This document shows, one piece after another, positions 45,028-64,000 of a DNA stretch of 64,000 nt. The stretch covers positions 352,001 through 416,000 of the forward strand of contig OZ224045.1 in the NCBI GenBank assembly GCA_963665325.3. Reading direction: 5' to 3'. A program made the position numbers and the translations under genes. The DNA comes from Alphaproteobacteria bacterium (GTDB lineage: Bacteria; Pseudomonadota; Alphaproteobacteria; Bin95). Numbering within the stretch: position 1 is the stretch's first letter; each line of letters starts with the position of its first letter. A model generated the notes under the pieces. The model was given only the letters and a program-made list of their open reading frames with translations, was not told the origin of the DNA and made no database searches.

Positions 45028-45094
45028 GATGCACCTGCCTCTACGGCGGGCGAATGGCCTATGCCGATCCGCCCTTCTGCATTGCCGACCTCCG

Positions 45095-45103
45095 TGCTAT
45101 AAA
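45095..45103 (+). promoter_or_regulatory. Putative extended -10 element upstream of rpsU
   Basis: TGcTATAAA about 45 nt upstream of rpsU start; AGAGGAG RBS follows. Confidence 0.45.
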
Positions 45104-45144
45104 CGCGCCCCTCGCAGCGACCGTCAGAGGAGCACCGAGCACCC

Positions 45145-45348
45145 GTGCATGTTACCGTCCGCGACAACAATGTCGATCAAGCGCTCAGGGCGCTGAAAAA
45201 GAAAATGCAGCGCGAAGGCATCTTTCGTGAAATGAAGCTGCGCCGTTCTTATGAGAAGCCCTCCGAGAAACGCGCGCGAGAGCAGGCCGAGGCCGTCCGC
45301 CGCCATCGCAAACTGATGCGCAAGCGTTTGGAGCGCGAAGGATACTAG
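45145..45348 (+). CDS. rpsU: 30S ribosomal protein S21
   Basis: [27 protein letters not shown]. Confidence 0.98.
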
Positions 45349-45355
45349 CTCCACA

Positions 45356-46981
45356 ATGAATGCCTATGACCGCGGCCTCGACCGACGGGCAGCAAACTAC
45401 GAACCGCTGACGCCACTTTCATTCCTGCAACGCACCGCCTGGGTTTTTCCGGAGCACCCTTCGGTCGTGCATGGAAAACGCCGGTTCACCTGGAAAGAGA
45501 CGCGCCAACGCTGCCATATGCTTGCGGATGCGCTTGCCCGGCGCGGCATAGGCAAGGGCGACACCGTGGCCGTCATGGCTGCGAACACGCCGGAGATGCT
45601 GGAGTGCCATTTCGGTGTGCCGATGACGGGCGCCGTGCTGAACACGCTGAATATCCGCCTCGACGCCGCGTCCATCGCCTTCATGCTGAAGCATGGCGAG
45701 GCGAAGGCCATTCTGGTTGATCGGGAATTTTCGGACACCATCCGTCAGGCGCTTGCCAGCCTCGGGCGGGATATCCTGACGGTCGATATCGACGACCCGG
45801 AATATGACGGACCGGGAGACCGGATCGGCAGCCTCGACTACGAGGCGCTGTTGGCCGAGGGGAATGCGGCTTTCGCATACTCTCCGCCGACGGACGAGTG
45901 GGATGCCATTTCGCTCAACTATACGTCCGGAACCACAGGCAACCCCAAAGGGGTGGTCTATCACCATCGCGGCGCCTGGCTGACCGCGACCGGAAACACG
46001 ATGGCGTGGCAGATGCAACTCCATCCGGTTTATCTCTGGACGCTGCCGATGTTCCACTGCAACGGCTGGTGCTTCCCCTGGACGATAACCGCGCAGGCCG
46101 GCACGCATGTGTGCCTGCGCCGGGTTGAGGCCGGACGGATTTTCGGCGCGATTGCGGACGAACGCGTGTCGCATTTCTGCGGCGCTCCGATCGTGCTCAA
46201 CATGCTGCTGCACGCGCCGGAGGAGGAGCGCCGGAGCTTCGCCCGCCGCGTCCAGGTAATGACCGCGGCCGCCCCGCCGCCGCCCTCGACGCTGGAGGGC
46301 ATGGAGGCAATGGGCTTCGACATCACCCACACCTACGGTCTGACGGAATGCTACGGCCCGGCCGTGGTCTCGGCCTGGAACACGGATTGGGACGCTTTGC
46401 CCGGCGCCGACCGCGCGGCGATGAAGGCGCGGCAGGGCGTTCGCTACCCGGTGCTCGAAGGCCTGACTGTGATGGACCCCGAAACGATGGCCGAAACGCC
46501 CCGCGACGGCGAGACCATCGGCGAGGTCATGATGCGCGGCAATGTCGTGATGAAGGGGTACCTGAAGAACGAGACCGCCAGCGATGAGGCATTTGCCGGC
46601 GGCTGGTTCCATACCGGCGATCTCGGCGTCATGCACGAGGACGGCTATATCGCGCTGAAGGACCGTTCGAAGGACATCATCATTTCCGGCGGGGAGAACA
46701 TCTCGTCCGTCGAGGTGGAACAGGTTCTGTACCGGCATCCGGCGGTGCTCGAAGCCGCGGTCGTAGCGAAGCCCGACGATAAATGGGGCGAAACTCCCTG
46801 CGCTTTCGTCGAAACCCTTTCGGGTGCAGAACCGACGGAAGCGGAGGTCATCGCCTTCTGCCGGGACAATATGGCCCGTTTCAAGGCGCCGCGCCGCGTC
46901 GTCTTCGGCCCCCTGCCCAAGACCTCCACCGGCAAGGTGCAGAAGTTCGTGCTCCGCGAACAGGCGCGCGATCTGGAGTGA
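45356..46981 (+). CDS. Acyl-CoA synthetase (AMP-binding)
   Basis: PLTPLSFL, YTSGTTGNPKG, YGLTE, GWFHTGD, LPKTSTGK. Confidence 0.93.
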   Translation: MNAYDRGLDRRAANYEPLTPLSFLQRTAWVFPEHPSVVHGKRRFTWKETRQRCHMLADALARRGIGKGDTVAVMAANTPEMLECHFGVPMTGAVLNTLNIRLDAASIAFMLKHGEAKAILVDREFSDTIRQALASLGRDILTVDIDDPEYDGPGDRIGSLDYEALLAEGNAAFAYSPPTDEWDAISLNYTSGTTGNPKGVVYHHRGAWLTATGNTMAWQMQLHPVYLWTLPMFHCNGWCFPWTITAQAGTHVCLRRVEAGRIFGAIADERVSHFCGAPIVLNMLLHAPEEERRSFARRVQVMTAAAPPPPSTLEGMEAMGFDITHTYGLTECYGPAVVSAWNTDWDALPGADRAAMKARQGVRYPVLEGLTVMDPETMAETPRDGETIGEVMMRGNVVMKGYLKNETASDEAFAGGWFHTGDLGVMHEDGYIALKDRSKDIIISGGENISSVEVEQVLYRHPAVLEAAVVAKPDDKWGETPCAFVETLSGAEPTEAEVIAFCRDNMARFKAPRRVVFGPLPKTSTGKVQKFVLREQARDLE

Positions 46982-47153
46982 GGCCGGGAAACCGGCTGGC
47001 CCCGAATTGCGCATCTGCGAGTTCGCTCGCGAACCCTCCGGCGGCGGCCCGTTTCCCGCTCCGACGCGCCAGAGCGGAGTCCTTCTCAGGCCGGACCGAC
47101 TCCGTCACCGTCGCCTTGGACTGCCGAATATTCATTTTTTGTTCCTAATTTTC

Positions 47154-47183
47154 TTGACTTTGAGGAAAATAGACTGATATAGG
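47154..47183 (+). promoter_or_regulatory. Putative sigma70 promoter of cassette copy 1
   Basis: TTGACT (47154-47159) followed by TGaTATAGG (47175-47183) in an AT-rich patch. Confidence 0.55.
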
Positions 47184-47185
47184 AC

Positions 47186-47218
47186 CCAGAGAAGCGGTGT
47201 CCGGAGCCGCTTCTCTGG
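47186..47218 (+). other. Perfect 12-bp hairpin at the 5' end of cassette copy 1
   Basis: CCAGAGAAGCGG-tgtccggag-CCGCTTCTCTGG; related hairpin at 60231-60258 in copy 2. Confidence 0.75.
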
Positions 47219-47399
47219 CGTCGCGCGGCCGGCGGCGCCATTTTCGAAAAAACCCTGAGAAACCGACGGGAGAGGTGTGCCCTCCGCCTCGCGCGCGCAA
47301 TCAGGCGTGCGAACCGCGCCGGCGCCAACGGGCGCCCCCGCCCGCGCGCGATAGCGCGCGGCAAAGGGTCCGCTGCTCCCGATCGGACAAGGAGAGCCG

Positions 47400-47873
47400 A
47401 TGACCGCAACCGACCCCCGCCCCGCACTGGCGGCGATGCTGGCCGCAAGGCTGATGCCGGCCGCCGATGCCCTCGCCGCAGGCTATACCCGGGACGCCAA
47501 CCCGGAGCCGCCGCCCTCGGACGACCGCGCCCGCGCCGAATGTGCCGACGCGCCGGGCGCGCCCAGCTCGCCCATCTGCGCCAGCTCCTCGCTCCGCTCG
47601 ACTGGAGCGCCGCGCACATGCCCGAGCCGGAACCGGAACCGTGGGAGTCGCCGCCCCCGGCGGTGCCGGACTACGACGGCAGCGAAGACGAGTTCCACTA
47701 TTTCGGCGAGGCCTGGGTCGGCAGCCAGGACACACCCGAATTCGGGGCATGGCGCGAACGGCAGAACCGCCGTACGGAAGCCAATATCGCCCGCTGCCTC
47801 GACAGCGCCGGAAGCGCGGGCCCCGACGGGGCGGCAAGCCATGACCGCAACCCCGCCGCATGACAAAACATGA
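47400..47873 (+). pseudogene. Hypothetical protein, probably frameshifted near 47540
   Basis: AAGGAG RBS before ATG 47400; protein-like helical sequence continues in the -1 frame (47540-47863) while the original frame turns low-complexity. Confidence 0.5.
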
Positions 47874-47885
47874 CATTCCATGACA
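47859..47885 (+). repeat. CATGACA x3 at exact 10-bp spacing
   Basis: CATGACAaaa CATGACAttc CATGACA starting at 47859, 47869, 47879. Confidence 0.9.
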
Positions 47886-47946
47886 CCGGGGGTGTGTGGA
47901 AGGAACCCGGTCCCGGGCTCGCCGGTGCGGGCCGCGCAGGACAGCG

Positions 47947-48762
47947 TTATTCCGGGCGTTCCCCCCGCAACGCTCGGGCGAGAGCGCAAAAGTCATCGAC
48001 TGTCAGTTCCTCGGGGCGCAGCGTGTCGTCGAGCCCTGCGCGGGCGGGGAGATCGCCGAGCGTGCGGCGGAGCATCTTTCGCCGCCCCCCGAAAGCGCGG
48101 GCCGTAATTTGTTCCAGATCGGACACGATCGCCGGCACCGGCGCCGAACGTGGCGTCAGTGCGACGACGCTGGAGGCGACTTTCGGCGCCGGGGTGAAGG
48201 CGCCGGGAGGTAGGTCGAAACAGCGGCGGACCTCGGCGCGCCATTGCACGAGAATCGAAAGCCGGCCTCGAGCCTTGCTGCCCGGCGGGGCCGCCAGACG
48301 GTCCGCAACCTCCTTCTGGAACATGAGGGTCATGGACTCGATCCCGGCCGACCGGCGCAGCCAGCCGACCAACAGCGGAGTGGCAACATTGTACGGCAGA
48401 TTGGCGATGAGCTTGATCGGCGCGGGGCCGAGCGCAGCTACGTCCACATCAAGCGCATCCGCGGCCATGACCCGAAGCCGCCCGCCGCTTGCCGCAGCGA
48501 GCTCCGCCAGCGCTTCGACGCAGCGGGCATCGCGCTCGACCGCAACAATTCGCTCCGCCCCGGCCTGCAGCAGCGCGCGCGTGAGACCGCCGGGGCCTGG
48601 ACCGATCTCGACGGCCGTTCGCCCCTCCAGAGAGCCCGCCGCGCGGGCGATGCGTTCTGCGATGCCGGGATCGAGCAGGAAATGCTGACCGAGCCCGCGC
48701 CGGGCGCCCAGCCCGTAGCGGCGGATCAGGTCCTGCGGGCGCGGCAGGTTGCCGTCAGACAC
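47947..48762 (-). CDS. rsmA: 16S rRNA m6,2A1518/1519 dimethyltransferase
   Basis: LGQHFLLD, EIGPGPGGLT, ANLPYNV, FQKEVA, F.PAPKV. Confidence 0.95.
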   Translation of the reverse strand: MSDGNLPRPQDLIRRYGLGARRGLGQHFLLDPGIAERIARAAGSLEGRTAVEIGPGPGGLTRALLQAGAERIVAVERDARCVEALAELAAASGGRLRVMAADALDVDVAALGPAPIKLIANLPYNVATPLLVGWLRRSAGIESMTLMFQKEVADRLAAPPGSKARGRLSILVQWRAEVRRCFDLPPGAFTPAPKVASSVVALTPRSAPVPAIVSDLEQITARAFGGRRKMLRRTLGDLPARAGLDDTLRPEELTVDDFCALARALRGERPE

Positions 48763-49738
48763 CTTGCCGGCGCTCTGCCATCGCATGGGCGAGTTTCAGG
48801 GCGGCAACCAGGCTGCCGGGCCGTGCGCAGCCGGTGCCGGCGATGTCGAGCGCGGTTCCATGGTCCGGCGATGTCCGCACGATCGGCAGGCCGAGTGTGA
48901 CATTCACCGCGTTGTGGAAATCCAGCATCTTCACCGGGATCAGTGCCTGGTCGTGATAGGCGCAGAGCACCGCATCGTACCGGGCCCGGGCTTCGGCGTG
49001 GAAGAGCGTGTCCGCCGGCAGCGGTCCGCGTATGTCGAGCCCTTCCCGCTTCAGCCGCGCCGCTGCCGGAGCCATGACCGCGCCGTCTTCCGCGCCGAGC
49101 GTCCCGCCCTCCCCGGCATGGGGGTTCAGGCCGGCCAGCACCAGGCGCGGCGCAGCGATGCCGAAATCGGCCCGCAGAGCATCGGCAACAATTCGCGCCG
49201 TTTCCTCGATCAAGGCTCCAGTCAGCCGGCCGGAAACCTCCGAGAGCGGAATATGCACAGTCAGAGGGACCGCCCGGAGGCCCTCGCCAACCAACATCAT
49301 GACCGAACGGCGCGCACCGGTAAGCTCCGCAAGGAACTCGGTATGGCCCGGATGGGCGAAACCGGCACTTGTCAGGCTTTCTTTCTGGATGGGAAGCGTG
49401 ACGACCGCAGAAGCGGCGCCGGAACCGACGGCCGCCACGGCTCGTTCGATGGAAGCGATGACCGCGGGAGCATGCTCAGGGTCGGCCGTTCCGGGTTCGA
49501 CCGGCGCCGTCAAGGGCAGCGGCAACACCGGCAGGGCGTCGGGAAATATCCGCACGGCATCGTCAGGCCGCTCGATCCGGCGGACGGGCGCAGCCGGGTC
49601 GATCCGCGCCAGCCAGTCGGCATCGCCGACCAGGAAAAACGCCGGCACGCCGGGTGTAGTCCAAGCCTTCAGGGCAAGTTCCCCGCCGACGCCGCCCGGT
49701 TCACCCATGGTCAGCGCGAGCGGCCGCGAGGAGGTCAT
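48755..49738 (-). CDS. pdxA: 4-hydroxythreonine-4-phosphate dehydrogenase
   Basis: TMGEPGGVG, PGHTEFL, NPHAGE, YHDQAL, RTSPDHGTA. Confidence 0.96.
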   Translation of the reverse strand: MTSSRPLALTMGEPGGVGGELALKAWTTPGVPAFFLVGDADWLARIDPAAPVRRIERPDDAVRIFPDALPVLPLPLTAPVEPGTADPEHAPAVIASIERAVAAVGSGAASAVVTLPIQKESLTSAGFAHPGHTEFLAELTGARRSVMMLVGEGLRAVPLTVHIPLSEVSGRLTGALIEETARIVADALRADFGIAAPRLVLAGLNPHAGEGGTLGAEDGAVMAPAAARLKREGLDIRGPLPADTLFHAEARARYDAVLCAYHDQALIPVKMLDFHNAVNVTLGLPIVRTSPDHGTALDIAGTGCARPGSLVAALKLAHAMAERRQGV

Positions 49739-50997
49739 TTGCGGCGGAATATCAATGCTGTGCGGCGCAGATCCTGCAAATATCGGTCCGCGCGTCGATT
49801 AATCCGCTCCACACGCAACTGCCGCGCGATCGCCTCCCGTTCTCTGGTGTCTTCCGGCGTCCTGATGCGCTCGCACACCATCAACACTAGGAAACCGCCT
49901 TCCCAAGGTATCGGGCTGCTCGCGACGTCCGGCTCCAGGCTCGATACCTCCCTTTGCAACTGCTCGGGCAGGTTACCGAGCTTGACCCGACCGGCGTCCA
50001 CCGGCTCCTCGATCCCGGCTTCCGTGGCGGCACGCTCCATGTCGGTGCAACCGGCGACCGTACTGCCGACCGCGGCCGCCCGCTCGCGGAGCGTTTCCGA
50101 CTGTGCAGGCGCGGCACCGTCCGGCGCCGTGAAATGGAGGCGCTTAAGTGCGAATTCAGCTTCCTCCGCGACGAAACCTTCGACAACCCTCCGCTCACGC
50201 AACAAAAGGATATAAAACCCGTTTTCAAGGCGAACCGGCAGAGAAAAACTATTTGGCGCCAGCGAGTCCAATGCCGCCTCCAGCCGGGAATCGAGCTGCC
50301 CGGCACGCACGCGCCCCAGATCGCCGCCAATGGCAGCAGAAGAGGATTGCGAAAACTGCCGGGCCAAACCTTCGAAGGAGGCGCCGGAGCGCAATTGCGC
50401 CACGATCCCGTCCGCGACTGCGCGAACTTCCCCTTCGCTCGCCGGGTCGTTCATTGCCAGGAAGATCTCCGAGACGACATATTCGCTCGAGCCGACGGCG
50501 GCGCGGCGTTCCGCCAGACGTGCTTCGACCTCGTCGATGCCGACTTCGACGCGCGGCGCGACCCGCCTAGCCAACAACTTGTTCCAGGCGGCCTCCACTC
50601 GCAAATGTTCCTTCAGCGCCTCGATATCGAGCCTATTGCTGCGGAAAAACCGGTCCAAACCGCCCGGTTGCAGATTGTTGCGCTTCTCTATGTCCGCGAT
50701 CTGCTCTGCAATCTCGTGTCCGCTCACATTGATTCCGAACCGCCTCGCTTCCTGGCTTTGCAGTCGTTCATCCATAAGTGTGCGCAGGATTTGCGACCCG
50801 AGCCGCTGGCGGATCTCCGGTGTGTCCTCGACATTCGAAGACGACAACGCAATGCCAAGCCGGGCAATAACGTCGTACCGAGTGATAATGTCATCGTTGA
50901 CGACGGCCACGATCCGGCCTGCCTGCTGAGCTTGGGCTACGCCGCAAGCAGCCAGGCCGCACAAGATGAAAATAAACCGCAGGCATGCGCAACGCAT
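49735..50997 (-). CDS. surA: Periplasmic chaperone/PPIase SurA
   Basis: Signal peptide, IVAVVNDDIIT, FEGLARQFS..GGDLG, YLQDLRR; upstream of pdxA. Confidence 0.88.
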   Translation of the reverse strand: MRCACLRFIFILCGLAACGVAQAQQAGRIVAVVNDDIITRYDVIARLGIALSSSNVEDTPEIRQRLGSQILRTLMDERLQSQEARRFGINVSGHEIAEQIADIEKRNNLQPGGLDRFFRSNRLDIEALKEHLRVEAAWNKLLARRVAPRVEVGIDEVEARLAERRAAVGSSEYVVSEIFLAMNDPASEGEVRAVADGIVAQLRSGASFEGLARQFSQSSSAAIGGDLGRVRAGQLDSRLEAALDSLAPNSFSLPVRLENGFYILLLRERRVVEGFVAEEAEFALKRLHFTAPDGAAPAQSETLRERAAAVGSTVAGCTDMERAATEAGIEEPVDAGRVKLGNLPEQLQREVSSLEPDVASSPIPWEGGFLVLMVCERIRTPEDTREREAIARQLRVERINRRADRYLQDLRRTALIFRRK

Positions 50998-51039
50998 CTT
51001 CGCCGTTCCCGTCTGGTCTTGGCTCCCGCAGTTATGCCG

Positions 51040-52131
51040 TCAGCCGTCCTCCAGATGCAAGAGCGCGGCACATCCGAGCATCACCGCAGCGGCTGCCGGT
51101 GTCCAGGCGGCCAACACGACCGGCGCCCTTCCCGAAAGGCCGAGCGCGAAAACGACGTCCGACAGGATGAAGAGCAGGAAGCCGGCCCCGACCCCGGCGG
51201 CAAGCATCGCCGCTGCGCCGCCGCGCCGCCGCGAGCGGATCGAAACTGTTGCCCCGATCAGGAGCATCGCTGCCGTCAAGACGACAGATGCCAGCAAGGC
51301 ATGCAGCCGAAGCCGGTGCTTTCGCGCCGGGAATCCCGCTTCTTCCAGCGATTCGATGTACCCAGGCAATCTCCAGACCGACATCGTGGCCGGGCCCGCC
51401 AGGCCGTCTTCGATACGTTCCCAGCTGAGCGTCGTAGGGACAGTCGCGGCACGGCGACGGACCGGGGAGTCTCTCGAATCGGCATCCCAAACGCCCTCAA
51501 GGGACCAGTGCCCTTGGCGCAGCTCCGCCGAATTCGCGTCGAGGCGATTTTGAAAGCTTTGCATGCCCTCGAAACGATAAAGCACCACGTCGTACAATAC
51601 GCGATCCGGTCCGACCCGGTCCGCGAACAGGATCGTCAAGTTGCCGTCGACAACTTCTCGCAGCCACAACCCCGATTGGGAAATCGACGATACCGGAGCC
51701 GCGTTCCCGAAATACTGCGCTTCCAGCCGTTCGAAACGGTCTTGCGCCGCAGCAGCAATCGGGCCGTAAAGCATCACTTTGCCCAAACCAAGCAGGAACG
51801 CAATCGCCAGCGCAGGCAGCAAAACCCGCCAGACCGAGACGCCGGCCCCGTGCGCTGCTGTCAGTTCGTTGTGCCGCGCCAGCCGATCGAAAGCGAACAG
51901 ACTGCCGAAAAGCACCGCGAAAGGCAGCATGAGTTCCAGCATTGCCGGCAATTTGAGCATCGCCATTTCCAGCACGATGCTGAATGTCGCGGCCTCCCGC
52001 GTACCGGAACGGCGCAACAGTTCGATCATTCCGACCAGCCATATAATCGCCGCCAACACGAGCAGGACGATGCATACCCAGAGAAGAAACCGCCTGGCCA
52101 AATACCGAAAAAGCACCCCGAACTGCTTCAT
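51040..52131 (-). CDS. lptG: LPS export ABC transporter permease LptG
   Basis: RYLARRF, LPFAVLFG, L.RHNELTA..GAG.S, GLWLRE, ends LLHLEDG. Confidence 0.88.
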   Translation of the reverse strand: MKQFGVLFRYLARRFLLWVCIVLLVLAAIIWLVGMIELLRRSGTREAATFSIVLEMAMLKLPAMLELMLPFAVLFGSLFAFDRLARHNELTAAHGAGVSVWRVLLPALAIAFLLGLGKVMLYGPIAAAAQDRFERLEAQYFGNAAPVSSISQSGLWLREVVDGNLTILFADRVGPDRVLYDVVLYRFEGMQSFQNRLDANSAELRQGHWSLEGVWDADSRDSPVRRRAATVPTTLSWERIEDGLAGPATMSVWRLPGYIESLEEAGFPARKHRLRLHALLASVVLTAAMLLIGATVSIRSRRRGGAAAMLAAGVGAGFLLFILSDVVFALGLSGRAPVVLAAWTPAAAAVMLGCAALLHLEDG

Positions 52132-52147
52132 TCGGCGCTTCCCCGTT

Positions 52148-53242
52148 TCAGACGGAAGCCGGGTGGCGTCGGCCGCTCAGCGCCAGCAGCGCGAATCCGA
52201 CCAAAATCGGCACCGCCCCGATAGCATATTGAAGACCGGCTAGAACCGGCAGTTTTGCCACTGCTGCCTTCGTCGCATACGCTCCCACCAGGAGACCGAA
52301 CGCAATCGCCCCGGCCAGTGCCGGTCGAAACGACTGGCCATGGCGGTTCACCCCGCCCAGCAGCAGACAGGCGAGCGCAACGACAGCCATGGCTCCCGGC
52401 ATGAGGCCGCTTGCAAGCCGGAAATGCCCCTCTGCCCTGTGCTTTGCGACATTTGCCCGCCCGACCTCCTCGGCGGAAGGATTCAGCAATTCGTTCAAAG
52501 TCCGTTCCCGCCGGCTGCGCGCTCTCTGCGGAACGGGGGGTAGATTGAGTTCAATTGTGTTGCGGTCGAAATAAACCAGGGTCAGGCGCCCCGTTTCCCG
52601 GTCGATCTCGTGCCTGCTCCCGTTGAAGGCAGTCAGCCTCGGTATTCCGTCCTCTACCGAGACGGTACCCCTTTCGGCCATGTAGGTTATGCGCCGCTCA
52701 GGATCCCGGTCATCCTGAAGCAGGATCCCCGAATACTCGCTGCCGCCGGTGCCGTCATGCACGAACAGAGTCATGTCTCGATCGACTTGCCTGAAGGTGC
52801 CCGGTTGCGCAAACAGGATGGAAAAGCGGTCCCTCAGGCTTGATCGAAGGTCGCGCAGCTCACTTTCGGAGGAAGGCGCCAGCACCAGGGCATTCCATGC
52901 GACGATGCCCATGATCGCCAGTCCCAACAAGAGCGCCGGCGCGGCCAGCCGAAGGTCGCTGACCCCGGCCGCCCGCATGACGATGAGCTCGCTTTCGGAG
53001 GCCATTCGTACATAGACCGTCAGGATGGCGATGAGCAACGCCAGCGGCAGCGCCACCCCGGCAAGATAAGGCAGCGCCAGGAGAACGAGCGCCGCAAACA
53101 GTTCGACGGCAGCTCCGCGTTCCACGATATCGTCGACGAAACGCAACGCTGTCGCCAGCAGCAGCAACGGGCAAAGCGCACCGGCCGCGGCGCCCAGTGC
53201 GACAAGCAAACGCCGCAGGACGTAAAGATCGGTCTGGCGCAT
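52148..53242 (-). CDS. lptF: LPS export ABC transporter permease LptF
   Basis: DLYVLRRL, ESELIVMRAAG.S, PGTF, AEGHFRLA; divergent from pepA. Confidence 0.86.
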   Translation of the reverse strand: MRQTDLYVLRRLLVALGAAAGALCPLLLLATALRFVDDIVERGAAVELFAALVLLALPYLAGVALPLALLIAILTVYVRMASESELIVMRAAGVSDLRLAAPALLLGLAIMGIVAWNALVLAPSSESELRDLRSSLRDRFSILFAQPGTFRQVDRDMTLFVHDGTGGSEYSGILLQDDRDPERRITYMAERGTVSVEDGIPRLTAFNGSRHEIDRETGRLTLVYFDRNTIELNLPPVPQRARSRRERTLNELLNPSAEEVGRANVAKHRAEGHFRLASGLMPGAMAVVALACLLLGGVNRHGQSFRPALAGAIAFGLLVGAYATKAAVAKLPVLAGLQYAIGAVPILVGFALLALSGRRHPASV

Positions 53243-53296
53243 CGCGAGCCTATATGCTGCTTTACTGAAAACTAGACAAGCCGCATGAGGACTCCC

Positions 53297-54757
53297 ATGA
53301 AGGTTTCTTTCGCCACTCCCGCCCTTCCCCCCTCGGGAGCCTTGGTACTGACGGTCGTCAAAGGAGGGACTCTGGAAGGCTTGGCGGCCGAAGCGGACGC
53401 TGCTGCGTCGGGCGCGCTTTCCAAAGCAATGGCAGCTTCCCGGTTCCACGGTGAGGCGAAGGCTACGCTTGAGGTCATGGTCCCCTCCGGCCTCGATGCC
53501 GAACGGGTCCTGCTCGTCGGAGTGGGGGATGAACTCGATGGGCGTCTGGCGGAGGATCTCGGCGGCACGATCTATTCCGTTCTCGCGAGGTCGGGTTCGG
53601 AGTCGGCGACGCTTGTCTGGCCGCAGGCCGGATCCGCCGCAGTCGTCGGTCTGGGCGCCGCTCTTGCAGCCTACCGCTTCGACAAGTACCGCACACAACT
53701 GAAGGACAAGGACAAACCGGTGCTCGCCGAACTCGTCATCGCAGCGCCGGATGCCGATGCTGCCCGCCGGTCCTACGATGAGGACGGCGCCAAGATAGTC
53801 GAAGCAGTCAAATTTGCGCGCGACTTCGTCTCGGAGCCCGGCAATGTTCTTTACCCGGAGACTTACGCGGAAGGGCTTCGCGAATTGGAAGCGGTCGGCG
53901 TCTCGGTGGAAGTGTTCGACCGGGCGGCGCTGGAAGAGCTGAACATGGCGACGCTGTTGGGCGTAGCGCAAGGCAGTGCTCGAGAGGCCCGGGTGGTCGT
54001 CATGCGCTGGAATGGAGCCGAGGGACCGCCGATAGCTCTCGTCGGCAAAGGCGTGACCTTCGACACTGGCGGCATATCGATCAAGCCGAGCGGCGGCATG
54101 GAAGAGATGAAATGGGATATGGGCGGATCCGCCGCTGTGGTCGGAGCGATGAAGGCGATTGCCGGCCGCAAGGCGGCCGCGAATGTCGTCGGTATCGTAG
54201 GCCTTGTGGAGAACATGCCTTCCTCGACGGCGCAACGGCCAGGCGACGTCGTAGCCAGCTATTCCGGCCAGACTGTCGAGGTAATCAATACCGATGCTGA
54301 AGGACGCCTCGTTCTGGCGGACCTGCTGGCCTATGTCATCGAAGTTTACAAGCCACGCGCTGTGGTCGATCTGGCAACGTTGACCGGCGCCATCGTTATG
54401 GCGCTCGCCCACGAATATGCCGGCATCTTCTCCAATGACGAGGCGCTGGCGCAATCGCTGCTGGCGGCAGGCGACGCCGTGGACGAGAAGTTATGGCGGT
54501 TTCCGCTTCATGACGCCTACGACAAGATGCTGGAATCGCCTATCGCCGACATGAGGAACATCGGCTCCTCGCGCGAGGCGGGCGCGATAACGGCAGCGCA
54601 ATTCCTGAAGCGTTTTGTCGGCGAGACGCCGTGGGCACATCTCGACATTGCCGGCACAGCTTGGACCGACAAGGCGCGTCCGACCGTGCCCAAGGGCGCG
54701 ACAGGCTACGGCGTCCGCCTGCTCGACCGGCTGGTCCGGGATGTCTGCGAAAGCTGA
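53297..54757 (+). CDS. pepA: Leucyl aminopeptidase
   Basis: GKGVTFDTGG, MKWDMGG, NTDAEGRLVLAD, HLDIAG. Confidence 0.96.
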   Translation: MKVSFATPALPPSGALVLTVVKGGTLEGLAAEADAAASGALSKAMAASRFHGEAKATLEVMVPSGLDAERVLLVGVGDELDGRLAEDLGGTIYSVLARSGSESATLVWPQAGSAAVVGLGAALAAYRFDKYRTQLKDKDKPVLAELVIAAPDADAARRSYDEDGAKIVEAVKFARDFVSEPGNVLYPETYAEGLRELEAVGVSVEVFDRAALEELNMATLLGVAQGSAREARVVVMRWNGAEGPPIALVGKGVTFDTGGISIKPSGGMEEMKWDMGGSAAVVGAMKAIAGRKAAANVVGIVGLVENMPSSTAQRPGDVVASYSGQTVEVINTDAEGRLVLADLLAYVIEVYKPRAVVDLATLTGAIVMALAHEYAGIFSNDEALAQSLLAAGDAVDEKLWRFPLHDAYDKMLESPIADMRNIGSSREAGAITAAQFLKRFVGETPWAHLDIAGTAWTDKARPTVPKGATGYGVRLLDRLVRDVCES

Positions 54758-55190
54758 CCCGCCGGGTTTCTACGACCTGGATGGCGCCCCGCTCGACCTT
54801 GGCCTGGGCCGGCTACTCGAAGCCGCACTGGCCGAAGGTCGGCGGGTATGCGTCCGCCTCGGCCAGGAGGAACGCGTAGCAGCGCTCGACCAAGGACTTT
54901 GGACCTATCGCAACGACAGCTTCCTGCCCCATGGAAGCGAAGGCGACCCCGCGGAGCATCCGGTGTGGCTGACGGCGGCGCTCGGGAATCCCAACGCGGC
55001 CGACCTGCTTGTCGTCGTGGACGATGCGTCCATGGATGGACGGGACGAATTCGCCGGTACCATCTATCTGTTCGACCGGCGCGACCCTGCAATGAGGGAC
55101 ATCGCCCGCGATCGCTTTGCTGCGTTTCGCGACCACGGAAACCCGCCTGGCTACCTGCGGTTCGGGACTCAAGGCTGGCCCCAATCGTAA
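54741..55190 (+). CDS. holC: DNA polymerase III subunit chi
   Basis: FY.L, LD..LWTY..DSFLPHG, PVWLT..NPN.A; follows pepA. Confidence 0.88.
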
Positions 55191-55198
55191 GGGCGTCG

Positions 55199-55227
55199 TT
55201 GTGCGGAACGGTCGGCATGGCTATAAC
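55199..55227 (+). promoter_or_regulatory. Putative sigma70 promoter of ndk
   Basis: TTGTGC-N17-TATAAC, then GGAGGAG RBS before GTG 55261. Confidence 0.5.
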
Positions 55228-55260
55228 GCCGCGCCCGCCAAGCTGGGGAGGAGACCTGAA

Positions 55261-55683
55261 GTGGCGACCGAACGCACATTGTCGATTGTGAAACCCGACG
55301 CGACCCGACGACAATTGACGGGGGAGATCGTCGCCCGGCTGGAGAAGGCGGGACTACAGGTCGTGGCCCAGAAACGCATCCGGCTGACACGGGAGCAGGC
55401 GGAGGGCTTCTATGCCGAGCACAGCGAACGGCCGTTCTTCGACGACCTTTGCACCTTCATGACCTCCGGCCCGGTTGTCGTCCAGGTCCTCGAAAGCGAG
55501 AACGCTATCGATCAAAATCGCGAGATCATGGGCGTCACCAACCCGGCCAATGCCGCCGATGGCACCATCCGCAAGGATTATGGCGAGTCGATCGAGGCCA
55601 ATTCCGTCCACGGCTCGGACTCTCCGGAAAGCGCGGAGCGGGAAATCACCTATTTCTTCAGCACCTGCGAAATCGTCGGCTAG
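55261..55683 (+). CDS. ndk: Nucleoside diphosphate kinase
   Basis: [28 protein letters not shown]. Confidence 0.97.
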
Positions 55684-56429
55684 GAACGGTCCGGGCTGTC
55701 TACACGGGCTACGGACAGGGCATCGACGCGGGCAGCGCCTGAGCGTTTCAGGACCCGCGCGCAGGCTTCGAGCGTCGCCCCGGTCGTCAGCACATCGTCC
55801 ACGATCACGATACGCGCTCCGCGCACACGGTCCCGCCAGGCCGGCGCCAGCCGGAATGCGCCGGCGACATTGCGCCCGCGCTCGCGCCGCCCGAGTTCGG
55901 TCTGCGGGCGGGTACGCCGAATGCGCCGCAGCATATCGGGAGCGAAGACCGCCCTGCCCCTTGCCGCCAGGCGCCGGGCCAGCAGCGCGGACTGGTTGTA
56001 GCGGCGCCGGTAGAGCCGCATCCAGTGGAGCGGTACCGGCACGATCCAGTCCGCGTCCTTCAGCAAGGTGGCGCCGGCATCCAGCGTCCAGACCGTCAGT
56101 ATCGGCGCCAGGCCGGTCTCGTCGCGAAACTTAAACCGGTGGATAAGGTCTCTCGCGTTACCTTCATAAATTAGTGCACTTCTAGCGCGATCATAGGCCG
56201 GACGCCTCGCCATGCATGCCGCACACAAGGAAGCGGCTTCTGCCTCGAAGGCGAAGGGCCGCCCGCAACAGTCGCAGAGCGGCTCCGCCACGAAAGCAAG
56301 ATCCGACCAGCAGGCTGCACAAAGGGTCGCCGGGTCCGCGACAGGACCGCGGCAGGAAGCGCAGCGCGGCGGCAGCGCCAGGTCCAGCAGCAGCCGACCG
56401 AACGCTGCGGCTCCAACCACGGGTAACAC
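55680..56429 (-). CDS. comF: ComF family protein (double zinc ribbon plus PRTase domain)
   Basis: Four CxxC pairs, [22 protein letters not shown]. Confidence 0.9.
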
Positions 56430-56438
56430 CGGCCGGGA

Positions 56439-57971
56439 TCAGGCGGGACGGCTCCAAAACCGGGTCGTGCCATCACGATCCAACTGCTCCACCAGCCCGG
56501 TTTCCCAGTCGAGGTAAGCCTGCATGTTCTCCTCGACGGTTCCGGCCTGCTCATAAGGCTTCAGCCAGACGTCGTCGGGCGTATCCGCCATGTGCGCAGC
56601 CCCGCTTTCCAGCGGACCCGTCCATGCGCGCGTACCGCCCTCCAGCACCGCGACCGGGCGGTCGAAATCGCCTGCGGCCAATCGCGCCAGCTGTCCGTCG
56701 GGCGAGGTGAAGACATAGCGCTCCGCGTCCGGCAGACGCGCCGAAGCGAGCCTCGAGCGGACCGCAAACCAGGCTCCCGGAATGTGGCCGTCGGCATAGG
56801 TCTTGCTGTCGGCGAAATCGACCACGACCGCTCCTTCGACCGCCTCCGGCCCGACTGTCGGCACGTCGGCCAGCCCCGGTATCTCGTGAGCCTCGGGCCC
56901 GGTCTCCAGCGGGCCGGTCTCAAGCGCCCCTTCGAGCACCGCGGCCTCCCAGTTCATCTGCCGGAGCCAGTGGGCGGTCATCGCCGCACGGACGCCGGTG
57001 TCGTCCACCAGGAAGATGCGGGCGCCCTGCACCGCCGCATAGCGGTCCGTCGCCTGCACCAATTGGCCGCCGGGCGCGGAACGCGAGCCCTTCAGGTGCC
57101 CCGCTTCGAACTCATGCGGATGTCGCACGTCGAACACATAGGTCGTCCGGCCGGGCGCAGGTGCGATCTCGCGCACGACCGGCACCTCGAAACGCCCGGC
57201 AACCGCCCTGGCACAGGCGCGCGCCGCTTCCAGCCCGGACGCGCTCGGTTCCGGCGCAGGGCGCTCATTGCCACGCTCCAGTTCGAGGCCGGCGAGATGC
57301 CAGCCCATGGTGCCGTTGCGCAGCGCCGCGACCCGGTTCGGTATGCCGGCATTGATGAGCGATTGCGCCCCGATGATGCTGCGTGTCCGCCCGGCGCAAT
57401 TGACGATAACCGTCGTGTCCGGCGAGGGGGCGAGGTCGTGGACGCGATAGACGAGTTCCGCTCCCGGACAGCAGGTCCCGGTCGGAATGTTCATATTCCG
57501 GAACTCGTCCATCGGCCGGCTGTCCAGCACGACTACCGGGTCCGGGCCGTCGAGCATTTCCTTGAGCTCATCTGCCGACACGGACGGAGTGTCGTAGGCG
57601 TGCTCGACATATTCGCCGAACGCCTTGCTCGGCACGTTGAAGCCGGAGAACACCTCGCAGCCCGCCTGCCGCCAGGCCTCGACCCCGTTCGCGAACAAGG
57701 CGACATCGGTGTAGCCGAGTTCGCCGAGTCGCGCCGCGCCGTGTTCCGCCAACCCCTCGCCATTGTCGGTGACGACGATCCTCGTCGCCTTGCGCGGCAC
57801 CAGGTCGCGGATCGACAGCTCCAGCCGCGAAAGCGGGACATTGCACGCATGCAACAGATGGGCCGGCGCAAACGAACCTTCCTCGCGCATGTCGAGAATG
57901 GCCAGTTCTGCCTCTCCATCCAGCGCCTCGCGCAACTCCTCGGCCGAGATCAGGCTATAGTTCTCGTTCAT
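56439..57971 (-). CDS. Four-domain rhodanese-like sulfurtransferase
   Basis: LDMREE, NVPSKAFGE, VNCAGRTRSIIG, GGQLVQ, GHIPGAWF, MQAYLDWE. Confidence 0.88.
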   Translation of the reverse strand: MNENYSLISAEELREALDGEAELAILDMREEGSFAPAHLLHACNVPLSRLELSIRDLVPRKATRIVVTDNGEGLAEHGAARLGELGYTDVALFANGVEAWRQAGCEVFSGFNVPSKAFGEYVEHAYDTPSVSADELKEMLDGPDPVVVLDSRPMDEFRNMNIPTGTCCPGAELVYRVHDLAPSPDTTVIVNCAGRTRSIIGAQSLINAGIPNRVAALRNGTMGWHLAGLELERGNERPAPEPSASGLEAARACARAVAGRFEVPVVREIAPAPGRTTYVFDVRHPHEFEAGHLKGSRSAPGGQLVQATDRYAAVQGARIFLVDDTGVRAAMTAHWLRQMNWEAAVLEGALETGPLETGPEAHEIPGLADVPTVGPEAVEGAVVVDFADSKTYADGHIPGAWFAVRSRLASARLPDAERYVFTSPDGQLARLAAGDFDRPVAVLEGGTRAWTGPLESGAAHMADTPDDVWLKPYEQAGTVEENMQAYLDWETGLVEQLDRDGTTRFWSRPA

Positions 57972-58001
57972 GGGCTTTCCTTCCGGCGCAGCGGGGCGTC
58001 G

Positions 58002-58775
58002 ATGATACCGCAACTCTTCGACCGAGGCGCCCTACGGCGCCACCGCGACCGGGCGGCGGCAGCGCCGCCGGACGCCGGTTTCCTGTTTCGCGAGGTGGCG
58101 GAGCGCCTGGCCGACCGGCTCGACGATGTAACGGTCGCCTTGCCGGTCGCCCTCGACATCGGCGCGCGCGACGGCGTGCTGGCGAAGGCGCTGGAGGGAC
58201 GGGGCGGAATCGAAACCCTCATCCGCCTGGAGGTCTCTGAGGCGCTCTGCCGCGCCGGAGGCGGCATCTCCGCCGTCGGCGAGGAAGACCGCCTGCCCTT
58301 CGCGCGGCAGAGCTTCAACCTGATTGCGAGCAACCTCGCTTTGCACTGGACGCAGGACCTGCCGGGCGCGCTCGTCCAGATCAAGCAGGCGCTCAAGCCG
58401 GGCGGCCTGTTCCTCGCCAGCCTGTTCGGCGGCGAAACGCTGACCGAACTGCGCCATGGCCTGCTTGCCGCCGATGCTGCTACGTCCGGAGGCGCCGCGC
58501 CCAGGGTTTCCCCGTTCGCCGACCTGCGCGATGCCGCCGGGCTGTTGCAGCGTGCCGGCTTCGACCTCCCGGTTGCCGATCTGGATACCATCCGGGTGAG
58601 CTACGACTCGCCGTTCAAACTGATGGCCGACCTGCGCGCCATGGGCGAGACCAACGCGCTGGACGCCCGGCCGCGGCACTTCGCCCGCCGCGCACTCTTT
58701 GCCGAACTCGCTTCGCAACAGGCGGGCCGGCAGGCGGCAACCTTCCAGATCATCTATCTCTCCGGCTGGGCCTGA
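58002..58775 (+). CDS. SAM-dependent methyltransferase (BioC/NDUFAF5-like)
   Basis: LFDR, LDIGARDG, LHWTQDLPG, RVSPFAD, LQRAGF.LPV.D, LRAMGE. Confidence 0.88.
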   Translation: MIPQLFDRGALRRHRDRAAAAPPDAGFLFREVAERLADRLDDVTVALPVALDIGARDGVLAKALEGRGGIETLIRLEVSEALCRAGGGISAVGEEDRLPFARQSFNLIASNLALHWTQDLPGALVQIKQALKPGGLFLASLFGGETLTELRHGLLAADAATSGGAAPRVSPFADLRDAAGLLQRAGFDLPVADLDTIRVSYDSPFKLMADLRAMGETNALDARPRHFARRALFAELASQQAGRQAATFQIIYLSGWA

Positions 58776-59782
58776 CCGCGAACGAGGCGGGCGCCTGCGA
58801 CCATTGCCCGCAGCTTTTCCCGCGCAAGCCAGCGCGGGAGGGCGGAGAAGCCGCAATCTGCGGTGACCCAGAGCCGGTCTCTCGGCACAACGGCCAGCAC
58901 GCGCTCCAGCCGCGCGGCGACCTCCTCCGGCGTTTCGATGTGGAACGACTTCACGTCGATCACGCCAGCCGCGATGCGGTAGCGCTCCGCCAGCGCCGGT
59001 AACATATCCAGGTCCGCCATCTCGCGGTTGGCGAATTCCAGCACCAGCATCGAGCAGTCGAGCATGGCCATGCCCGGCAGCAGGCGGGCGAAACCGCGCG
59101 GCGCGTATGGGCGGGACGCATTGTTGCCGAAGCAGATATGCACCGCGACCCGCTCCGAATGGCCTGCCACGGCCTTGTTGATCGCCTCCGCGCGGCTGCG
59201 GCTGTCGAGGCCGTAGGAGGGATCGGTGAAACCGGGCTCGTCAATCTGGACCAGTTCCGCCCCCTCTTCCGCAAGCCTGTCGAGTTCGTCTTTCACGATG
59301 CCGGCGATGTCGTCCAGCAGCGCCATCGCGTCGCCGCCATAGGGACCTTCCGGCTCGATCTTGGGCATGAAGGTCAGCGGGCCGGGAAACGCCGCCTTGA
59401 GCAGCCTGCCGGGCGCCAGTTCCCGGAGCCGGCGGTATTCGGCCGCAATGCCGAGGCCGCCCGGCGCACGCACACGCTCGCGGGCCACGAAGTGCGGCGC
59501 CCGGTCATAGCCCGGCACACCGAGCCGCCGGCCGGCCGGAATCCGCTCTATCCCGGTCAGCCGGTCGTACATCTCATAGACGAACCGGCTCCGCCGAAGC
59601 TCGCCGTCGGACAGGATGTCCACGCCCGCCTCAATCTGGTCGGCAATCGCAATGCGGGTCGCATCGTCCAAGGCTTCCTCGACATCCTCGGCGCCGGTCC
59701 GTCCTCCGCGCATGGCCTCCCGGAACAGGAACAGCCAGCCGGGCGCTGCGTAAGACCCCACGCCCATCGTGGGCAAATCCAT
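58754..59782 (-). CDS. Cobalamin-independent methionine synthase II family (MetE C-terminal-only) protein
   Basis: VGSY..P, DGELRR, GPLT, QIDEP, HIC.GN, LEFA, DCGF zinc ligands; AAAGGAGG RBS. Confidence 0.85.
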   Translation of the reverse strand: MDLPTMGVGSYAAPGWLFLFREAMRGGRTGAEDVEEALDDATRIAIADQIEAGVDILSDGELRRSRFVYEMYDRLTGIERIPAGRRLGVPGYDRAPHFVARERVRAPGGLGIAAEYRRLRELAPGRLLKAAFPGPLTFMPKIEPEGPYGGDAMALLDDIAGIVKDELDRLAEEGAELVQIDEPGFTDPSYGLDSRSRAEAINKAVAGHSERVAVHICFGNNASRPYAPRGFARLLPGMAMLDCSMLVLEFANREMADLDMLPALAERYRIAAGVIDVKSFHIETPEEVAARLERVLAVVPRDRLWVTADCGFSALPRWLAREKLRAMVAGARLVRGQAQPER

Positions 59783-59860
59783 CTTGTTTCCTCCTTTCGA
59801 ACTCCGGCACGGGGACAGCGACAGCTTCCCGGATGCCGGGTCCCGCCCGACAGGCCGGAC

Positions 59861-59897
59861 TGTCATGAAGTGTCATGTCTTGTCATGCGATGTCATG
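59861..59897 (-). repeat. CATGACA x4 at exact 10-bp spacing
   Basis: TGTCATG on the + strand at 59861, 59871, 59881, 59891. Confidence 0.9.
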
Positions 59898-60007
59898 GTC
59901 TGCATGCGGATAACGCACAAGGGATGGTCCATTCGGACGTGAAGCCGTCGTTTTCGGCGGGGGCCGGAGGTATTCCGTCTGCTTTCCCCGCTTTGCATCT
60001 TCGGCAT
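59873..60007 (-). CDS. Possible 44-aa small ORF in cassette copy 2 (MPKMQSGESRRN...MTSHDKT)
   Basis: AGAGGAAGGAG RBS before ATG at 60007, at the same relative position as the copy-1 ORF start; coding status unproven. Confidence 0.35.
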   Translation of the reverse strand: MPKMQSGESRRNTSGPRRKRRLHVRMDHPLCVIRMQTMTSHDKT

Positions 60008-60265
60008 GGCTCCTTCCTCTCGATCCAGTTTCGTTCCGTTAGTCCCGCGGCCGGCTCGCCCCTGCGGCGGGACCCTGTTTCGCGCGTATCGGGCGCGAGC
60101 GGGCGCGCCCGTCAGCGCCGGCGCGGTTCGCGCGCCTGATTGCGCGCGCGAGACGGCGGACGCACCTGTCCCGTCCGTTCCCGCCGGGGCATTTTTTTGC
60201 AGCCCCAGCCGCCTTCCTGCGCAGAAATGCGAAAAGGCGGCCCCGGAAGCCGCCTCTCCATTCTC

Positions 60266-60292
60266 ATTCTACCACAGATATTTCTATGTCAA
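60266..60292 (-). promoter_or_regulatory. Putative sigma70 promoter of cassette copy 2
   Basis: Minus strand TTGACA-N15-TAGAAT with extended TG; spacer is short. Confidence 0.5.
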
Positions 60293-60328
60293 ATTTGTTT
60301 TGGCATTAAATCCACATAATGTGAATAA

Positions 60329-62619
<2,291 letters not shown>

Positions 62620-62625
62620 CCGCTC

Positions 62626-63609: not shown

Positions 63610-63622
63610 AGGCATAATCCCA

Positions 63623-64000
63623 ATGAATCAGCTTGAATTAGGCGCACTTGAACAAGTGGAAGTCCGTCAAATTTGGCCGCACGAAGCGCACGACTTCACG
63701 CCATGGTTGGCGGACAACCTCGACAAGCTATCCGCCGTGTTGCATGTGGATCTTGAGCGTGAAGGCACTGAGGTACAAGTAGGGCGGTACAGAGCGGATA
63801 TTGTCGCCCGCATACCGCAAGATGACACGCGCGTACTCATTGAAAACCAAATCGACGAAGCCAACCTGCAGCATCTGGGGCAAGTGCTTGCCTATCTTGC
63901 CGGCTTAGACGCCGAAATCGTCGTCTGGATTGCGACCGGTTTTGACGAGGCGCACCTCTCCGCAATCCGTTGGCTGAACGAACACACGGCGGACCCGTTC
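63623..64000 (+). CDS. N-terminal part of a DUF4268-associated, PD-(D/E)xK endonuclease-like protein (runs off window end)
   Basis: MNQLELG..RQIWPHEAHDFTPWLADNL..E..VG.YRADI..VLIENQ..HLGQVLAYLAG..WLNE; absent from ORF track because it has no stop in the window. Confidence 0.78.
   Translation, partial: MNQLELGALEQVEVRQIWPHEAHDFTPWLADNLDKLSAVLHVDLEREGTEVQVGRYRADIVARIPQDDTRVLIENQIDEANLQHLGQVLAYLAGLDAEIVVWIATGFDEAHLSAIRWLNEHTADPF

Follow-up and report, generated by a model that had tools for sequence, protein, structure and literature searches.

Two intergenic stretches of an alphaproteobacterial genome as possible members of an old family of modular cassettes ending in a phased CATGACA array

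Introduction

Two stretches of the alphaproteobacterial genome G000 (5.58 Mb, 67% G+C, five contigs) raise the question of what kind of element carries a conserved series of non-coding parts around unrelated open reading frames (ORFs). Both lie in the window analysed here, the 64,000 nucleotides (nt) of G000:C1:352001-416000, in whose numbering positions are given unless a contig or locus is named: copy A at 47126-47919 on the plus strand and copy B at 60331-59827 on the minus strand. An earlier note on this DNA had read them as two copies of a mobile or regulatory cassette family with an array of CATGACA heptamers, which we call the pad. Our preferred and still tentative explanation is that the two stretches belong to an old, genus-restricted family of modular expression cassettes. 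These could be semi-domesticated units, organised like insertion sequences (IS) and miniature inverted-repeat transposable elements (MITEs), that supply promoter and leader and whose array serves both as a landing pad for a cassette-encoded protein, P0001, and as a three-frame stop.

Results

Shared architecture and family size

Reading and alignment of the two stretches confirmed that the parts listed in the earlier note are common to both, in the same order and on opposite strands. The similarity is not due to chance, since copy B was retrieved with copy A as nhmmer query at E = 4.6e-13 and with the family profile at E = 4.2e-33. The identity of 37/38 claimed for 47288-47325 against 60152-60115 was exact, and the ungapped figure of about 78/89 for the wider core was close: the best 89-nt register tried gave 76/89 and the whole core 92/127. 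The enclosed ORFs are indeed unrelated, that of copy A being a frameshifted relative of a 187-aa protein (P0002, below) and that of copy B having 44 codons. An ACCCGG..CCGGG hairpin was rightly noted in both window copies but is no feature of the family, in which 3' similarity is gone, and information close to zero, within some 25 nt downstream of the last heptamer.

Iterated nhmmer searching to convergence gave 68 core copies in G000 (29 on contig C1, 18 on C3, 16 on C4 and five on C5), which bears out the suggestion of a multicopy family well beyond the two window copies. The cores are divided between the plus (33) and minus (35) strands, and cassette orientation shows no bias relative to GC skew (33/68 co-oriented). 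The closest family copies are about 90-94% identical. Cassettes are 0.4-3 kb long and asymmetric, with a leader, a Shine-Dalgarno (SD) sequence, cargo and the heptamer pad.

Family similarity exceeds the core on both sides and begins about 40 nt before TTGAC, as judged from the 46 copies that could be anchored on an exact TTGAC. A -10-like hexamer, most commonly TAGAAT, is present in 37 of these 46, and 31 of the 37 carry TG at the extended -10 position; conservation across the family suggests that these elements form a cassette promoter. The 5' hairpin that follows is kept across copies while its stems have changed. Within the core, one block hardly changes among 138 copies taken from many genomes and consists of a GC inverted repeat around the 7-nt asymmetric sequence AATCAGG. 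The anchored family alignments thus identify the conserved non-coding frame foreseen in the earlier note as promoter block, 5' hairpin, leader and 3' array.

The heptamer pad

CATGACA occurs 710 times in G000 on both strands, where about 311 occurrences are expected. It forms 79 clusters of at least two heptamers, of which 69 follow a core of the same orientation at no more than 1.5 kb and four more lie 2-3 kb downstream of cores with longer cargo. Spacing between heptamers is exactly 10 bp in 119/145 cases. A downstream pad of 10-bp period and matching orientation accompanies 66 of the 68 cores, and the two cores lacking one are those interrupted by a tyrosine-recombinase element. Pads contain two to five heptamers with the consensus CATGACA-AAA-CATGACA-TTT-CATGACA, followed in many copies by GGAGTGGGCCCC.

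The 10-bp period shifts the frame by one nucleotide per repeat (10 is 1 modulo 3), so three heptamers bring TGA and ATG into each of the three frames. All frames are stopped in 54/66 pads, compared with 18/1320 random genomic windows of equal length. As a matter of sequence content only, the all-frame stops and starts of the pad lie just before the host gene's own ribosome-binding site, and the pad would thus end translation of the cargo there. Single-mismatch units in phase with the array (n = 29) differ at position 7 in 16 cases and are rarely changed at positions 4-6, a pattern that does not separate a stop-codon role from that of a protein site.

By eye, one or two degenerate CATGCG-type units at 9-13-nt spacing stand just upstream of many pads, for example at 59898-59925 on the minus strand, so the repeated region is longer than the exact heptamers.

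Cargo of the cassettes

A crude composition filter based on G+C at third codon positions (GC3) found a coding-like ORF in 14 of the 68 cassettes; most interiors are 100-300 nt long and have none. Five cassettes of G000, one of which escaped the filter, encode the 326-aa protein P0001. Residues 11-80 of P0001 match positions 2-71 of the 141-position Pfam profile Terminase_2 (E = 1.2e-12), and the protein also matches PHROG family phrog_51 (E = 2.1e-14). In an AlphaFold model built from 34 homologues, the mean predicted local distance difference test score (pLDDT) is 58.5, with values above 90 at residues 11-50, long helices at 52-106 and 146-199 (pLDDT about 60-75) while Terminase_2 profile positions 72-141 remain unmatched, and low-confidence acidic stretches with an acidic tail. 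The top Foldseek match of the N-terminal domain is the SF6 small-terminase DNA-binding domain, with a template modelling (TM) score of 0.85 on the target, a root-mean-square deviation of 1.5 Å and 41% identity over 56 columns, at a Foldseek E of 0.011, above the tool's line of 0.001. The N-terminus of P0001 is an SF6/SPP1-type small-terminase (helix-turn-helix) DNA-binding domain.

All five Terminase_2 genes of G000 lie in cassettes. Identity among the five P0001 copies is 95, 96 and 87% at codon positions 1, 2 and 3, which indicates purifying selection on P0001. H-D and two further residues form the C-terminus of all 34 aligned homologues; the P0001 frame enters the first heptamer and is closed by the TGA in the second. 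By module, the five P0001 cassettes are 63% identical in the promoter, 79% in the leader, 93% in the ORF, 86% in the pad and 31% in the flanks. The P0001-bearing full cassettes are candidates for the autonomous form of the family. The earlier view that no transposase or integrase accounts for the family needs an addition: its fullest members encode a phage small-terminase DNA-binding domain. No parent element with a transposase between the same ends was seen among recurrent cargo (P0001 was the one considered; other proteins were not searched genome-wide).

The second cassette protein, P0002 (187 aa), has one intact copy and three partial or broken relatives in G000 by tblastn, no Pfam family, a weak PHROG match (E = 0.013) and no similarity to P0001. 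The ORF of copy A matches P0002 residues 1-40 in one frame and 43-184 in another, and differs from its intact orthologue in G005 by a 2-nt indel and internal deletions. Other cargo includes ordinary enzymes: an alpha/beta hydrolase (Pfam) and two ORFs named by eye from their translations as of epimerase and isochorismatase type. A further type comprises small basic ORFs starting MPK, among them the 44-codon ORF of copy B. In 13 MPK-type ORFs a conserved stretch before the pad is read in different frames, and this stretch is therefore conserved as nucleotides and not as protein.

Distribution among genomes

Fourteen of the 16 other genomes of the genus have multiple copies of the core, and searches of 24 genomes from outside the genus found none (eight from two sister genera and 16 from other families). 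An exact 29-mer of the core occurs in at least 99 stretches of metagenome-assembled genome records labelled Alphaproteobacteria or Rhodospirillales bacterium. Of the 16 congeners searched, 12 have 6-17 P0001 matches each, counting fragments, and the other four gave none (G001, G003, G009 and G014). Two weak matches in a sister genus (31-32% identity over about 105 residues) look like ordinary terminases. In a large protein collection, 363 clusters among 8000 candidates scored matched P0001 at E of at most 1e-5, some of them named terminase small subunit.

We counted pad dimers, defined as two heptamers 10 bp apart, as a measure of the array. Six P0001-bearing congeners have 103-319 of them (G016, 319; G005, 252; G012, 217; G013, 195; G011, 178; G008, 103) and G000 has 119, as against 1, 0 and 0 in the P0001-free genomes G001, G003 and G014; G009 has 23. 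A reversed control pattern gave zero in all ten congeners searched. An apparent switch of pad strand along G012 was judged an artefact and is given no weight. Pads and P0001 occur together, except in G009, where pads are few. The genomes are kin, so these counts do not amount to a statistical test.

Fixed sites and swapped modules

At both window loci, every family-bearing relative compared has a cassette in the same place and orientation with different contents, and these orthologous cassettes differ in cargo, leader or promoter between species, so that the exchangeable cargo of the earlier note is borne out. In all genomes compared, the copy B locus is flanked by the same pair of divergent genes, and in the family-free genomes G003 and G014 it is a short intergenic region of about 155 nt. 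Seven family-bearing species have a cassette there in the same orientation. Compared with G000, the cassette of G011 has the same body behind another promoter and 5' hairpin, that of G007 has another leader subtype, and in G009 the core is followed directly by the pad; G008 has an extra insertion and a second pad, and G013 carries a P0001 gene. In G012 (L143:2314-2946) the promoter, 5' hairpin and pad enclose a different leader without a core, although this genome has 217 pad dimers and eight P0001 matches; the core is therefore not universal to the family.

The G000 and G011 cassettes at the copy B locus are mosaic relative to each other. Identity is 174/200 in the upstream flank, 78/160 across promoter and 5' hairpins and 272/280 from core to pad, and reaches 70/71 in the last 71 alignment columns, which cover about 40 nt before the ATG and the first 31 nt of the gene. 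At the copy A locus, the orthologue in G005 is intact, the cassette of G011 is a minimal one that lacks a core, and in G013 the same flanks enclose 2.4 kb that include a cassette-like match; in G003 and G014 the locus is empty, with about 57 and 32 nt between the matched flanks. Both of these genomes are thus empty at both loci, and their intergenic DNA is too diverged for base-level junctions to be read.

This pattern indicates that both window loci were probably occupied before these species split, and suggests that modules were later shuffled among anciently occupied sites by recombination or gene conversion between dispersed copies. Internal deletion alone would be insufficient because the cargoes are unrelated.

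Three further loci show how cassettes can be rearranged or interrupted. The P0001 cassette at G000:C3:636725-640702 (L160) has flanks that are far apart or on different contigs in 5/5 other genomes, one of them family-free, and therefore sits at a rearrangement junction, a break in synteny. In another genome, L108:3480-4640 (minus strand) has one promoter and 5' hairpin followed by three tandem units, each made of a core, an SD, a small ORF starting MSFPDP and a heptamer pad. Two cores of G000 are cut at the same position, inside a small CGCGATA..CGCG hairpin, by an element with three tandem tyrosine recombinases, two of which have Arm DNA-binding domains. Its two copies (C1:777146 onward, L195:247-4082; and C4:14292 downward) are 100% identical over their first 300 nt, and a third copy at C5:193144 is 89% identical. 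Insertion at the same position in two cores implies that the core can be a recombinase target on DNA, and suggests that the element prefers it.

Genomic context

Gene neighbourhoods were scored from composition-based ORF calls for the 65 cassettes scorable on both sides. Twenty-nine of these lie between co-directional genes and point the same way, five point the opposite way, 17 are in convergent gaps and 14 in divergent gaps; in all, 43/65 point into a co-directional gene. Pfam families were assigned to 16 of 18 downstream genes scanned, with no common theme: they include a class I lysyl-tRNA synthetase, an alanine racemase, an E1 dehydrogenase, the Meth_synt_2 protein downstream of copy B and several solute-binding proteins. 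A strict terminator scan found none in copy A and, in the copy B region, two sites on the plus strand (0.9 expected), opposite to the cassette. With no intrinsic terminator after the pad on the cassette strand of either copy, a portable promoter and leader for the next gene is the likeliest local effect, and we propose that the cassettes would act in this way.

Discussion

A modular expression cassette with its own pad-binding protein

The explanation that we find best, while no more than tentative, describes each cassette as follows. An AT-rich block, TTGAC and an extended -10 promoter-like element (TGnTAnAAT-like) lead into one or two 5' stem-loops and a GC-rich leader, which in most lineages includes the nearly invariant block of 35-38 nt; an SD, a start codon, variable cargo and the 3' pad follow. 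The full form carries P0001 with its stop codon inside the pad, and P0001 would bind pad DNA as the propagation or maintenance factor of the family, much as a transposase serves both IS and MITEs. The many short copies would then be non-autonomous derivatives, modules would be exchanged by recombination or gene conversion between dispersed copies, and wherever the next gene is co-directional (43/65) the cassette would be its portable promoter and leader. Transcription, pad binding and mobility are parts of this scheme that we infer from sequence.

Several results weigh against this explanation. TTGAC stands in both window copies, as the earlier note had it, but a strict sigma-70 consensus scan calls no promoter in either stretch; the scan requires a 16-18-nt spacer, the spacer of copy B is 15 nt and the -10 element of copy A ends in G. 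Across the family, the spacer between TTGAC and the -10 element is 15 nt in 28/37 copies, which is short for sigma-70. Contigs of four RNA runs over 46500-60800, runs that contain 5-8% of words, reach short pieces of the flanking genes and neither cassette. P0001 has no catalytic domain recognisable by Pfam or in the AlphaFold model, and no transposase domain, and so cannot move DNA by itself; its binding to the pad is a prediction. Cores and 23 pad dimers persist in G009, where P0001 has no match. Finally, the non-coding body of the copy B cassette is 97% identical between G000 and G011 compared with 87% for the flank, which points to a function in transcript or DNA that this explanation would not cover.

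The mobility proposed in the earlier note was not borne out. We found no target-site duplication: the longest exact word shared by the two flanks averaged 6.29, as against 6.28 in shuffled pairings (59 copies, 600 pairings), in a test that would miss duplications shorter than about 5 bp. Terminal inverted repeats were likewise not seen on inspection of the anchored alignments, made without an inverted-repeat search; the consensus ends are unrelated, with TTTGTTC...GAAATAATTCC...TTGAC at the 5' end and the CATGACA pad, often followed by GGAGTGGGCCCC, at the 3' end. The family also contains no near-identical copies. Recent movement is therefore without support, in keeping with the shared occupation of both window loci.

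Competing explanations

The swapped contents of fixed sites can also be read as the work of a genome-wide cassette-exchange system, in which incoming cargo, including the P0001 gene itself, would overwrite resident cassettes between leader and pad. Each genome would then hold from 70 to more than 150 fixed landing pads, each giving promoter and leader, as a dispersed functional analogue of an integron or as a homing-type selfish element driven by a DNA-binding protein in which no catalytic domain is known. We judge this unlikely.

We give similarly little weight to the proposal that the cassettes are functional RNAs, either small RNA genes or cis-acting 5' leaders, with P0001 and the other ORFs as incidental passengers. 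The leader and the AU-rich pad would, in this improbable case, act in the transcript, for example in protein binding, processing or ribosome handling. The excess conservation from core to pad over the flank in G000 and G011 (272/280 and 174/200) is what such a function would leave, and the pre-pad module read in different frames and the coding-like ORFs confined to 14/68 interiors agree with it. RNAfold predicts strong 5' hairpins and GC stems in single copies, and one-sided stem changes among the cores favour wobble pairing (41 U-G or G-U cells compared with 13 C-A or A-C cells), a hint of strand-specific pairing in copies that are related by descent. The consensus, however, folds weakly: RNAalifold on the 138 cores gave 13 pairs, one with two-sided change, and a covariation term of -0.21 kcal/mol, as there is hardly any variation in the central block and the variable GC-rich parts are difficult to align. 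A small helix picked by hand failed across subfamilies. The near-invariant block would suit recognition by a protein no less than a role in RNA. A permissive Rfam scan of 44000-64000 returned a single, chance-level match (MH_s15, 18.2 bits against a gathering score of 123, E = 0.8), in line with the earlier statement that no known RNA motif explains the stretches. The orthologous cassettes of G012 and G011 have kept pad and promoter without a core, the contigs of the RNA runs do not reach the cassettes, and the strict tie between P0001 and the pad would be left unexplained.

Site-specific recombination of a dispersed, integron-like kind is a good deal less probable. Crossover would take place at the AATCAGG block, with the heptamers as accessory sites resembling arm-type sites, and, just as doubtfully, the recombinase would be encoded elsewhere and P0001 would be an architectural factor. 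The near-invariant block does have the form expected, an inverted repeat around a short asymmetric spacer in 138 copies, and cargo differs at orthologous sites; the locus with one promoter and three core-ORF-pad units and the insertion of the three-recombinase element at one core position in two cassettes also speak for it. The breakpoint of the G000/G011 mosaic, however, lies at least 25 nt upstream of the spacer and not in it, coreless cassettes keep pads and promoters, and the tandem units could come from unequal crossing-over. No recombinase gene is linked to the cassettes, and none specific to family-bearing genomes was searched for.

It is very unlikely that the cassettes are ordinary non-autonomous transposons of MITE or mobile-insertion-cassette type served by a classical transposase encoded elsewhere. 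High copy number, intergenic position, variable cargo and a range of 23 to 319 pad dimers between species would suit such elements. Their ends should, however, not be unrelated sequences without inverted repeats, and the absence of target-site duplication in 59 copies, the occupation of both window loci in all family-bearing species compared and the lack of a transposase domain in the only multicopy family protein all speak against them.

Least likely of all are dispersed pac-like sites at which P0001 would be a working small terminase, packaging host DNA with the large terminase of a helper phage or gene-transfer agent: its DNA-binding domain is of the SF6/SPP1 type, small terminases of that type recognise repeated, phased boxes at pac, and the pads are phased direct repeats in fixed orientation, but the match is limited to profile positions 2-71 of 141, the model being otherwise helical or disordered, the P0001 genes stand alone in their cassettes with none beside a terminase gene, and large terminases are so rare in the genus (Terminase_6N in 3/17 genomes, two over the cut-off; Terminase_3 and TerL_ATPase in 0/17; GpA type not searched), compared with P0001 in 13 of the same 17, that P0001 is no part of a resident packaging machine.

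Comparison with known systems

The closest likeness of the preferred modular-cassette reading is to IS with their MITEs and mobile insertion cassettes, in which a few protein-coding full copies stand beside many short or cargo-swapped copies with the same ends and copy number varies between species. Many IS have a promoter at one end and the stop codon of their protein inside the other, and the cassettes likewise have a promoter-like element at one end and the P0001 stop inside the repeats of the other. They differ from IS and MITEs in lacking inverted repeats, target duplication and a transposase domain, and in insertion sites that are stable across species. Correia repeat-enclosed elements of Neisseria are similarly high-copy intergenic repeats able to place a promoter before neighbouring genes. 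Correia elements are about 100-150 bp long, with inverted ends and target duplication, in contrast to the longer, asymmetric cassettes with their leader, SD, cargo and pad. Pneumococcal BOX elements and enterobacterial bacterial interspersed mosaic elements (BIMEs) resemble the family in being assembled from a few modules whose order is fixed, with internal units that vary in number; they are not known to encode a protein themselves, to combine a promoter with an SD or to carry a phased array of heptamers.

With integron cassettes the family shares a conserved non-coding frame, exchangeable ORFs behind an upstream promoter and, at one locus, a three-unit tandem array. It differs in its roughly 70 dispersed sites, each with its own promoter and no adjacent integrase (an integron integrase was not searched for), in a 3' end that is a direct-repeat pad and not an attC-like imperfect inverted repeat, and in mosaic junctions that fall at no single point. 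P0001 itself is like the SF6/SPP1 small terminase G1P in its N-terminal domain and in the phased boxes that are its presumed target, and unlike it in that no oligomerisation domain can be recognised, no large terminase lies beside it and each genome has 5-17 matches where a prophage has one gene. We found no description of the cassette family in the titles and abstract openings of the literature on alphaproteobacterial intergenic repeats or on the heptamer, nor in Rfam, and it appears to be undescribed. Papers retrieved with the heptamer mostly concern primers, and the first of them is on the pSK41 ArtA regulator (PMC2777438).

If the cassettes do act as promoters, each genome of the clade would have some 70 or more extra promoter-led units, about two thirds of them pointing into varied host genes, as a large unannotated layer of gene control. 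P0001 would exemplify the recruitment of a small-terminase DNA-binding domain from phage to a role other than packaging, with CATGACA at helical phase as its candidate target. For annotation, the label "terminase small subunit" on P0001 homologues would wrongly suggest prophages. Fixed sites with swapped modules would also make it practicable to study how dispersed repeats recombine in uncultured symbionts.

Feature coordinates and minor observations

Table 1 Parts of copies A and B and the gene downstream of copy B, in window positions
Copy	Feature	Position	Strand	Basis and remarks
A	AT-rich upstream block, GAATATTCA...TTTTTGTTCC	47126-47153	+	sequence; 5' limit of family similarity
A	promoter-like element	47154-47183	+	TTGACT 47154-47159, 18-nt spacer, TGATATAGG 47175-47183; extended -10 type
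A	5' stem-loop	47187-47217	+	RNAfold of copy A
A	second GC hairpin	47217-47239	+	RNAfold of copy A
A	A tract	47246-47252	+	sequence
A	conserved leader core	47246-47371	+	nhmmer profile; nearly invariant block 47288-47325
A	SD-like AAGGAGA and cargo ATG	47389-47402	+	same SD/ATG layout before cargo in other copies
A	cargo	47400-47873	+	frameshifted, internally shortened P0002 relative; frame change near 47541-47552
A	heptamer pad	47839-47885	+	degenerate CATGACC, then exact CATGACA at 47859, 47869 and 47879
A	small ACCCGG..CCGGG hairpin	47905-47919	+	sequence; no family feature
B	AT-rich upstream block	60293-60331	-	orthologous flank similarity to G011 reaches up to the block
B	promoter-like element	60266-60292	-	TTGACA 60292-60287, 15-nt spacer, TGGTAGAAT 60274-60266
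B	5' stem-loop	60259-60231	-	RNAfold
B	second hairpin with A7 loop	60213-60180	-	RNAfold
B	conserved leader core	60067-60197	-	nhmmer match G000 C1:412197-412067; nearly invariant block 60152-60115
B	SD	60017-60008	-	SD and ATG 60017-60005
B	44-codon ORF	60007-59873	-	stop inside pad
B	heptamer pad	59861-59897	-	four exact CATGACA, 10-bp period
B	spacer, small hairpin (59841-59827) and host gene's own SD	59782-59860	-	sequence
	host gene downstream of copy B, cobalamin-independent methionine-synthase-like, Meth_synt_2	58754-59781	-	Pfam E = 6.8e-32

On the plus strand, opposite to copy B, a terminator-like hairpin with a T run lies at 60177-60190. This hairpin is the reverse complement of that copy's second hairpin with its A7 loop; it could terminate transcripts that run into the cassette from its downstream side.

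Large terminases are represented in G000 by a single match, to Terminase_6N (83.6 bits), at C1:484011-484640, 68 kb past the end of the window. It presumably belongs to a prophage and is not accompanied by a Terminase_2 small subunit.

In G011, about 270 nt absent from G000 are inserted between the pad and the Meth_synt_2 gene (L141, about 2990-3260). The insertion is flanked by the direct repeat GGCCTGTCGGG and looks like a different small mobile element with a target duplication.

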